From a virus (lineage: Duplodnaviria > Heunggongvirae > Uroviricota > Caudoviricetes), in IMG/VR virus record IMGVR_UViG_2558860274_000003: a stretch of DNA of 15,475 nt. The stretch is one strand, 5' to 3'. A model generated the notes under the pieces. It ran no database searches. It was not told the DNA's origin and saw nothing but the letters and a program-made list of their open reading frames with translations. The translations under genes and the position numbers were made by a program. Shown here piece after piece: positions 14,905-15,475 of this stretch. The first letter of the stretch is position 1, and each line of letters starts with the position of its first letter.

Positions 14905-15016
14905 ATTCACTATCGCCACTTTTATTGGCGATGAAAAGATGTTTCGTGAGGCCGTCGACGCTTATAAAAAATGGATATTAATACAGAAACTGAGATCAAG
15001 CAAAAGCATTCACTAA
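14873..15016 (+). CDS. kil: Kil, host-killing FtsZ inhibitor (47 aa)
   Basis: Internal Met of the 89-aa track [50 protein letters not shown] matches lambda Kil. It overlaps the cIII end and the gam start with the same geometry as lambda (46-nt overlap with gam). Confidence 0.82.
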
Positions 15017-15180
15017 CCCCCTTTCCTGTTTTCCTAATCAGCCCGGCATTTCGCGGGCGATATTTTCACAGCTATTTCAGGAGTTCAGCCATGAACGCTT
15101 ATTACATTCAGGATCGTCTTGAGGCTCAGAGCTGGACGCGTCACTACCAGCAGATCGCCCGTGAAGAGAAAGAGGCAGAA
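14971..15180 (+). pseudogene. gam: gam, 5' fragment (about 70 codons), fused by deletion to integrase 3' sequence
   Basis: [68 protein letters not shown] matches the lambda Gam N-terminus. The sequence then diverges into 18 unrelated codons and a stop (15238). Confidence 0.8.
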
Positions 15181-15475
15181 GATGCGCATCGACAGCAAGA
15201 CATCATGGCTATCAGCTTGTCGTCGTGCAGGAATTGAAGATTTCCGTTTCCATGACCTCAGACACACCTGGGCAAGCTGGCTGATTCAGTCAGGCGTCCC
15301 ATTATCAGTGCTTCAGGAAATGGGCGGATGGGAGTCCATAGAAATGGTTCGTAGGTATGCTCACCTTGCGCCTAATCATTTGACAGAGCATGCGAGGAAA
15401 ATAGACGACATTTTTGGTGATAATGTCCCAAATATGTCCCACTCTGGAATTATGGAGGATATAAAGAAGGCGTAA
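15181..15475 (+). pseudogene. int: Tyrosine recombinase (phage integrase) 3' fragment, about 98 codons including the catalytic H-x-x-R and Tyr
   Basis: In the frame of the 118-aa track ORF, the sequence after the junction reads ...[51 protein letters not shown]...KKA*, the conserved C-terminal catalytic region of tyrosine integrases. There is no N-terminal or core-binding domain upstream; the first about 20 codons of the track ORF are gam DNA out of frame. Stop is the last codon of the window. Confidence 0.75.

Follow-up and report, generated by a model that had tools for sequence, protein, structure and literature searches.

Gene content of the prophage remnant

The window (the whole 15,475 bp stretch of DNA analysed here) spans from the start codon of ompT to the stop codon of an integrase gene fragment. 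Positions 5091-15475 are 100% identical over 10,385 bp to nucleotides 958555-968939 of the Escherichia albertii KF1 chromosome (CP007025.1; locus L002). The window is thus KF1 chromosome, an exact match that rejects the Shigella origin which the IS load might suggest. It holds almost the entire length of a DLP12-type cryptic lambdoid prophage located at the argU tRNA gene. The elements are arranged in the order ompT, appY-like gene, LRR-like ORF with IS2, IS66, cro, cI, two ORFs, N, sieB, ral and a 149-aa ORF, followed by a DUF2528 gene with an IS629-like element, cIII, kil, a 5' fragment of gam (gam') and a 3' fragment of int ('int).

Both ompT (1-954, + strand; Pfam Omptin match) and the appY-like gene for an AraC regulator (1204-1953, - strand; Pfam AraC HTH match) represent cargo of the attR end. 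The LRR-like ORF (3016-3789, + strand) has a weak Pfam LRR match only, and is cut by IS2 at about 3714-4987. This ORF could be a phage-borne, effector-like cargo gene; a look-up of its IS2-cut form returned two metagenome contigs that are 99.3% identical to the window. In the sister loci L014 and L015, the same position between appY and the immunity region is taken by a 453-aa ORF without a Pfam match. An IS66-family element encoding TnpA, TnpB and TnpC (5054-7387) occupies the place where the replication and late genes would be expected. The cro-like gene, the cI repressor gene (S24 peptidase), N, sieB and ral (8228-11864) all appear to be intact ORFs. The 149-aa ORF (12338-12787, + strand) has no Pfam match and lies in a segment of approximately 490 bp (12309-12798) that extends from ral to the DUF2528 gene. 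This segment is missing from an otherwise collinear E. coli prophage (L001, described below). The 149-aa ORF is present in every fetched locus with the chimeric gam-int ORF that extends to its position.

The IS629-like (IS3-family) insertion (13196-14508, + strand) lies within the DUF2528 gene and is flanked by a 3-bp target duplication, GAC. Its terminal inverted repeats are imperfect, and its orfB is apparently split into short ORFs. To the right, cIII (14740-14904, + strand) and kil (14873-15016, + strand) are intact, with kil sharing a leftward pL-type operon with gam and cIII. An Rfam scan of the window identified only the ALIL frameshift pseudoknot of the IS3-family element (13531-13647) and the lambda cIII RNA thermoregulator (14727-14785), with no match at the gam-int junction. 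With cI, the cro-like gene, N, sieB, ral, cIII and kil apparently intact, the remnant may still confer immunity and exclusion, and it may express the toxic Kil upon SOS induction. No second integrase was found among the called genes of the element.

A gam fragment fused to the 3' end of an integrase gene

The lambda-type gam' fragment (14971-15180, + strand) was identified by ORF translation, Pfam, PDB and DNA homology. In the ORF 14971-15237, the Gam sequence runs to ...AREEKEAE and is followed by 18 non-Gam residues. The match to Pfam Gam (PF06064; E=1.9e-14) covers only profile positions 1-33 of 98, and similarity to the solved GamS structures 2UUZ (E=3.7e-14) and 5MBV is limited to residues 1-34. 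Nucleotides 14700-15180 share 99.6% identity with the cIII-kil-gam region of many E. coli prophages and Stx phages, with all of the gam-side alignments (thousands) ending at 15180 (query base 481). The fragment, read in frame 1 from 14971 or 15091, comprises codons 1-70 of the 138-aa long form of gam, or 30 of the 98 GamS codons when the GamS-type start at 15091 is used. A full-length, 98-residue GamS is not encoded, with int being read out of frame after residue 30. Region 14971-15180 is therefore a gam gene fragment that lacks over two thirds of GamS and does not encode a Gam protein. The resulting chimeric ORF (15091-15237, + strand) has 48 codons, combining Gam residues 1-30 with 18 out-of-frame int residues, and extends to 88 aa from the upstream ATG at 14971. 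The 48-aa product is an exact match to AHE58820.1 of E. albertii KF1, named 'host-nuclease inhibitor protein Gam' in GenBank.

The 'int fragment (15178-15475, + strand) was assigned to the intD/DLP12-type tyrosine integrases by DNA identity, Pfam, motif content and alignment to 1AIH. Both E. coli genomes and 9 phage records contain intD-type integrase genes whose 3' ends are 100% identical to it. Its translation matches Pfam Phage_integrase (PF00589; E=4.9e-22) only at profile positions 100-171 of 172, corresponding to the C-terminal 42% of the integrase catalytic domain. The int reading frame is frame 2 (15119 or 15182 to 15475), and the tail corresponds to about residues 290-387 of a 387-aa homologue (start at 289/290). 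The HDLRH (H314, R317), GGW (W340) and RRYAH (Y349) motifs are retained. Alignment to HP1 integrase (1AIH) pairs TGLR (R215) with its first catalytic Arg and KSNRA (K242) with its Lys region; both motifs precede residue 289 and are deleted. Two of the six residues of the catalytic set R-K-H-R-H/W-Y are thus gone, and the N-terminal arm-binding and core-binding domains are likewise absent. Given established knowledge of tyrosine recombinases and GamS, both the Gam stub and the int tail, which lack parts that an active protein of their family needs, are predicted to be inactive.

The int fragment is not among the called genes in the KF1 record; in several other assemblies, gene callers report a 97-aa ORF starting at int Met291 (15182-15475, + strand). 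The same 97-aa int C-terminal ORF is also on record for E. coli, for example in strain PCN061, under the name 'putative integrase; DLP12 prophage'. No complete E. coli genome has the gam-int junction, and therefore intD has been truncated independently in E. coli, with other breakpoints.

Blastn places the end of gam homology at 15180 and the start of int homology at 15178, leaving a 3-bp overlap, GAA (15178-15180, + strand). A three-way alignment with the intact E. coli prophage L001 agrees with this position and reveals neither filler bases nor an IS end at the junction; phage Turner gives identical breakpoints. The breakpoint corresponds to gam codon 70 in the long form, or codon 30 in GamS. 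The parental sequences at the crossover (indicated by a slash) are GGCAGAA/CTG for gam and TCAGGAA/GATG for int, with a common CAG(G)AA if one indel is allowed. A chance match on either side is excluded because the E-values for the gam and int sides range from 1e-154 to 0. According to our own calculation, where the probability of a k-bp overlap is P(k) = (k+1)(1/4)^k(3/4)^2, about 5% of random junctions would overlap by at least 3 bp. The GAA overlap is mildly suggestive of short-homology illegitimate recombination, and does not prove it.

A preliminary description of this DNA had placed the end of Gam after ...AREEKEAE at about 15180, near codon 70, with the DNA continuing directly into the C-terminal catalytic region of a tyrosine integrase in a different frame. 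The alignments bear this out: homology ends exactly at 15180 and codon 70, the two fragments are read in frames 1 and 2, and the downstream sequence matches an integrase 3' end over its full length (15178-15475, 100% to intD). The breakpoint and microhomology that had been left to alignment are those given above. While the description of the fragment as the 3' end of a tyrosine integrase gene holds, it does not derive from lambda Int, since it is of the DLP12/intD type that targets argU.

Extent and content of the missing segment

Both halves of the junction are found together in the E. coli genome STEC1585. In this strain, an intact prophage at argU (locus L001) has the order cIII-kil-gam-bet-exo-DUF1317-DUF1382-hypothetical-TraR/DksA-DUF4222-(xis-like HTH remnant)-intD-tRNA-Arg-fimZ. 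Window positions 14509-15180 align to 7672-8343 of L001, and 15178-15475 to 12361-12658, so that the interval absent from the window is L001 8344-12360, or 4,017 bp. The free, viable phage Turner (PP925837; L017) shares these breakpoints and also carries the 4,017-bp segment, which is 99.75% identical to that of L001. On the gam side, the identity of the window is 98.2% with L001 and 95.9% with Turner; on the int side it is 100% with both. The size of the loss presumes an ancestor collinear with L001 and Turner, as the scar alone gives no size; no intact version of the same prophage was retrieved from an E. albertii strain.

The segment contains gam codons 31-98 (GamS numbering), bet, exo, five or more small ORFs of the exo-xis region and the xis region, and it ends with the first 866 nt of int (codons 1-289). 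The comparison with L001 and Turner thus supports the earlier list of missing genes as far as the rest of gam, bet, exo, the xis region and 5' int are concerned. The 'b-region genes' that had been included in this list are a misnomer: the missing genes are the exo-xis ORFs. The b region of lambda lies on the opposite side of attP, and its counterpart in the present element is the ompT/appY cargo at the attR end, which is retained.

The argU attachment site

Inspection of the KF1 sequence past the window end revealed tRNA-Arg(tct) argU on the opposite strand, 16 bp beyond the int stop codon (ARAGORN, L002), followed by fimZ and the sfm fimbrial operon. Adjacency of int and argU is also seen in the E. 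coli prophage L001. The proposal that the int 3' end marks the original attachment side is therefore upheld within the same genome, with both attL and the tRNA gene present where they had been suggested to lie. An empty argU site occurs in the E. albertii type strain NBRC 107761 (L012), where the order is nfrA-ybcH-envY-orf160-argU and the alignment with KF1 picks up again at the 3' end of the tRNA gene. In this strain the prophage, ompT and appY are all missing at the argU locus (L012 5597-6250).

In sister strains (L013-L016, L018), attR is present as a 45-bp copy of the argU 3' end, located upstream of ompT at a distance of 422 bp from its ATG. Among these strains, L016 (CP130156.1) contains attR, the same gam-int junction and attL together, with one attR and one attL. 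No copy of the argU 3' end occurs within the window at up to 3 mismatches; an attR of KF1 itself would be expected just to the left of the window start, outside the sequence observed.

With int truncated and no other integrase called, we predict from the sequence that the prophage is unable to excise by itself. The statement in the preliminary description that it cannot excise holds in this restricted sense. Excision by Int and Xis provided in trans by a related phage is conceivable, with attL intact and attR present in the sister strains.

Distribution and age of the junction

The chimeric 48-aa ORF, and with it the junction, was located on at least 20 contigs across NCBI, ENA and Logan assemblies. 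The 90-nt junction context is identical in all ten of the junction-bearing loci that were fetched. In carriers with a readable flank, the sequence beyond argU is 99.05-100% identical to that of KF1; the corresponding E. coli flank is only about 75-90% identical to KF1 where it aligns. None of 5,426 complete E. coli genomes has the junction; in these, no place covers 80% or more of 14700-15475. An exact 40-mer search of the GTDB species representatives gave no match, the E. albertii representative having an empty argU site, nor did a search of IMG/VR with the junction-spanning 31-mer GAGAAAGAGGCAGAAGATGCGCATCGACAGC. The scar thus does not appear to circulate in predicted viral contigs.

The IS629-like insertion is found in KF1 only and is missing from the nine other junction-bearing loci; it is therefore younger than the gam-int junction and represents a recent, KF1-specific event. 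Locus L016 exhibits an additional loss of cro-cI-N-sieB. As the junction is common to loci that differ in these later events, it predates them and has been inherited within an E. albertii lineage. The surroundings of IS66 also vary. A terminase Nu1 fragment survives beside it in L013 (15957-16421), and the same IS66 abuts ral in L016; the strains therefore display successive stages of erosion.

Origin of the junction

We consider it highly probable that a single illegitimate deletion, occurring after integration, stranded the prophage. According to this model, a lambdoid phage of the Turner/DLP12 type would have integrated at argU in an E. albertii lineage. One illegitimate recombination event between sites sharing only GAA would then have removed about 4.0 kb, beginning with gam codon 31 (GamS numbering) and ending with int codon 289. 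This would have eliminated bet and exo (Red), the exo-xis region and xis as well as three quarters of int, counted from its N-terminus. The stranded prophage would have been inherited vertically, while IS66, IS2 and IS629 insertions and the loss of replication and late genes continued its decay. That the deletion took one step, and that it followed integration, we infer by parsimony; phage integration needs Int, which places the loss of int after the integration event. The nature of the ancestor is indicated by the far end of the element. In Turner (L017 6783-7736), an ompT homologue annotated as 'hypothetical protein' is located immediately past attP and is 97.8% identical to window positions 1-957. 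A gene in this position ends up at the attR end upon integration, as is the case for ompT in the window, which points to a Turner/DLP12-type phage. From the state of its two fragments, we regard the scar as non-functional.

The differing identities on the two sides of the junction could be taken to indicate two elements, with int derived from an older argU prophage and gam from a tandem lambdoid phage, and with a larger or multi-step deletion having removed the boundary between them. Indeed, the gam side is 98.2% (L001) or 95.9% (Turner) identical as opposed to 100% for the int side, and other lambdoid prophages do use argU in E. albertii, for example that of L015 with its Erf/SSB/Abc2 module. 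However, such mosaicism is usual in lambdoid phages and calls for no tandem array, the orientation and order of gam and int are as in a single intact prophage, and only one attR and one attL occur in L016. A single 4,017-bp loss explains all of the observations. A deletion spanning two elements is thus less parsimonious than a single deletion, and we regard it as improbable. That the junction is merely an assembly or sequencing artefact in KF1 might be raised only as a general possibility, in a region with many IS elements and repeats. The identical junction and 90-nt context nevertheless recur in ten loci (at least 20 contigs carrying the junction) from unrelated assemblies and metagenomes, and the carriers include strains without a neighbouring IS. 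These independent assemblies rule out an artefact, the probability of which we place close to nil. Aberrant Int/Xis excision and IS-mediated deletion are both known to remove prophage DNA, and with three IS types within the window a specific enzyme could have made the deletion, either through aberrant excision at a secondary att site or through an IS-mediated adjacent deletion. The right breakpoint is, however, located inside int. The att core starts at the argU 3' end, 313 bp away, and aberrant excision by Int was rejected on the grounds that the breakpoint is not at the att core. Similarly, IS-mediated deletion was rejected as no IS end abuts the junction: gam and int sequence account fully for both of its sides, and the nearest IS is 670 bp away and missing in other junction-bearing strains. 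Involvement of either enzyme is accordingly very unlikely.

It has also to be considered whether the scar was kept for a useful new ORF. Either the 97-aa int tail or the 48-aa Gam stub would then be produced from pL upon induction and might, for instance, disturb the integrase of related phages that enter the cell. At the junction (15170-15184), a gam-derived AAGAGG is located 6 nt upstream of the int Met291 ATG (15182) and constitutes a plausible ribosome-binding site for the 97-aa ORF. The upstream pL-operon genes N, ral, cIII and kil as well as the cI repressor gene are intact, and the junction is conserved in all carriers. Such conservation carries no information in carriers that are 99-100% identical throughout, and the EEKEAE codons are so rich in purines that a Shine-Dalgarno-like run would arise there by chance. 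The int tail, moreover, has neither the DNA-binding domains nor the full catalytic set, two of whose six residues are missing. We therefore doubt strongly that the scar was retained for either ORF. A more specific version, in which a gene made by chance yields a cI-controlled, pL-expressed 97-aa fragment that hinders integration or excision of incoming Turner/DLP12-type phages, would be equally far-fetched; if true, the scar would be a small domesticated anti-phage or immunity accessory as opposed to junk.

Relation to known prophages

The element is comparable to DLP12 of E. coli K-12. Both share the argU tRNA-Arg(tct) site beside the int 3' end, an integrase of the intD family, and ompT with appY-like cargo at the far end, and both are defective, IS-ridden remnants. 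The E. albertii element differs in its host and in having int cut at codon 289 and fused to gam. In K-12 DLP12, intD is full length, xisD and exoD are pseudogenes, and the decay breakpoints lie elsewhere. The best model of the ancestor is provided by Turner, 2G7b, ev243 and the PhiR series, which are viable temperate lambdoid phages with an int 3' end 100% identical to that of the window and a gam-bet-exo-...-int-attP order. In contrast to the remnant, this group has the full 4,017 bp, an intact 387-aa integrase and another immunity region. The presence of an ompT homologue in the viable Turner identifies the OmpT outer-membrane protease as mobile cargo of this phage group.

Short-homology illegitimate deletions that strand prophages, as in Rac, Qin and e14 of K-12 and in defective prophages generally, are alike in exhibiting a clean junction with tiny microhomology, loss of excision genes, later IS insertions and vertical inheritance. 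There is no difference in kind between such deletions and the present one, only the breakpoints and the host lineage being new. The process is one of routine, textbook prophage decay, and the element is the E. albertii counterpart of DLP12 with a different decay breakpoint; a search of the E. albertii literature for prophages at argU and for DLP12 found no description of this locus. Both the 48-aa 'Gam' ORF and the int fragment should be annotated as pseudogene fragments, and beyond annotation the scar itself is of little import. The junction does provide a clean, lineage-specific marker that could be used to type an E. albertii sub-lineage and to order the IS629, IS66 and IS2 insertions. It also illustrates neatly that a prophage deprived of int and xis becomes stranded, with its cargo (ompT, appY) and its immunity and exclusion genes (cI, sieB, ral, kil) left in place.

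The argU locus of E. albertii is not confined to this element. In L015 (15500-20954), a different lambdoid prophage occupies argU, with a P22-Cro-like immunity region and an Erf/Rad52-SSB-Abc2 module in place of Gam-Bet-Exo. This prophage retains the same ompT/appY/453-aa cargo, which suggests module replacement through recombination with incoming phages.
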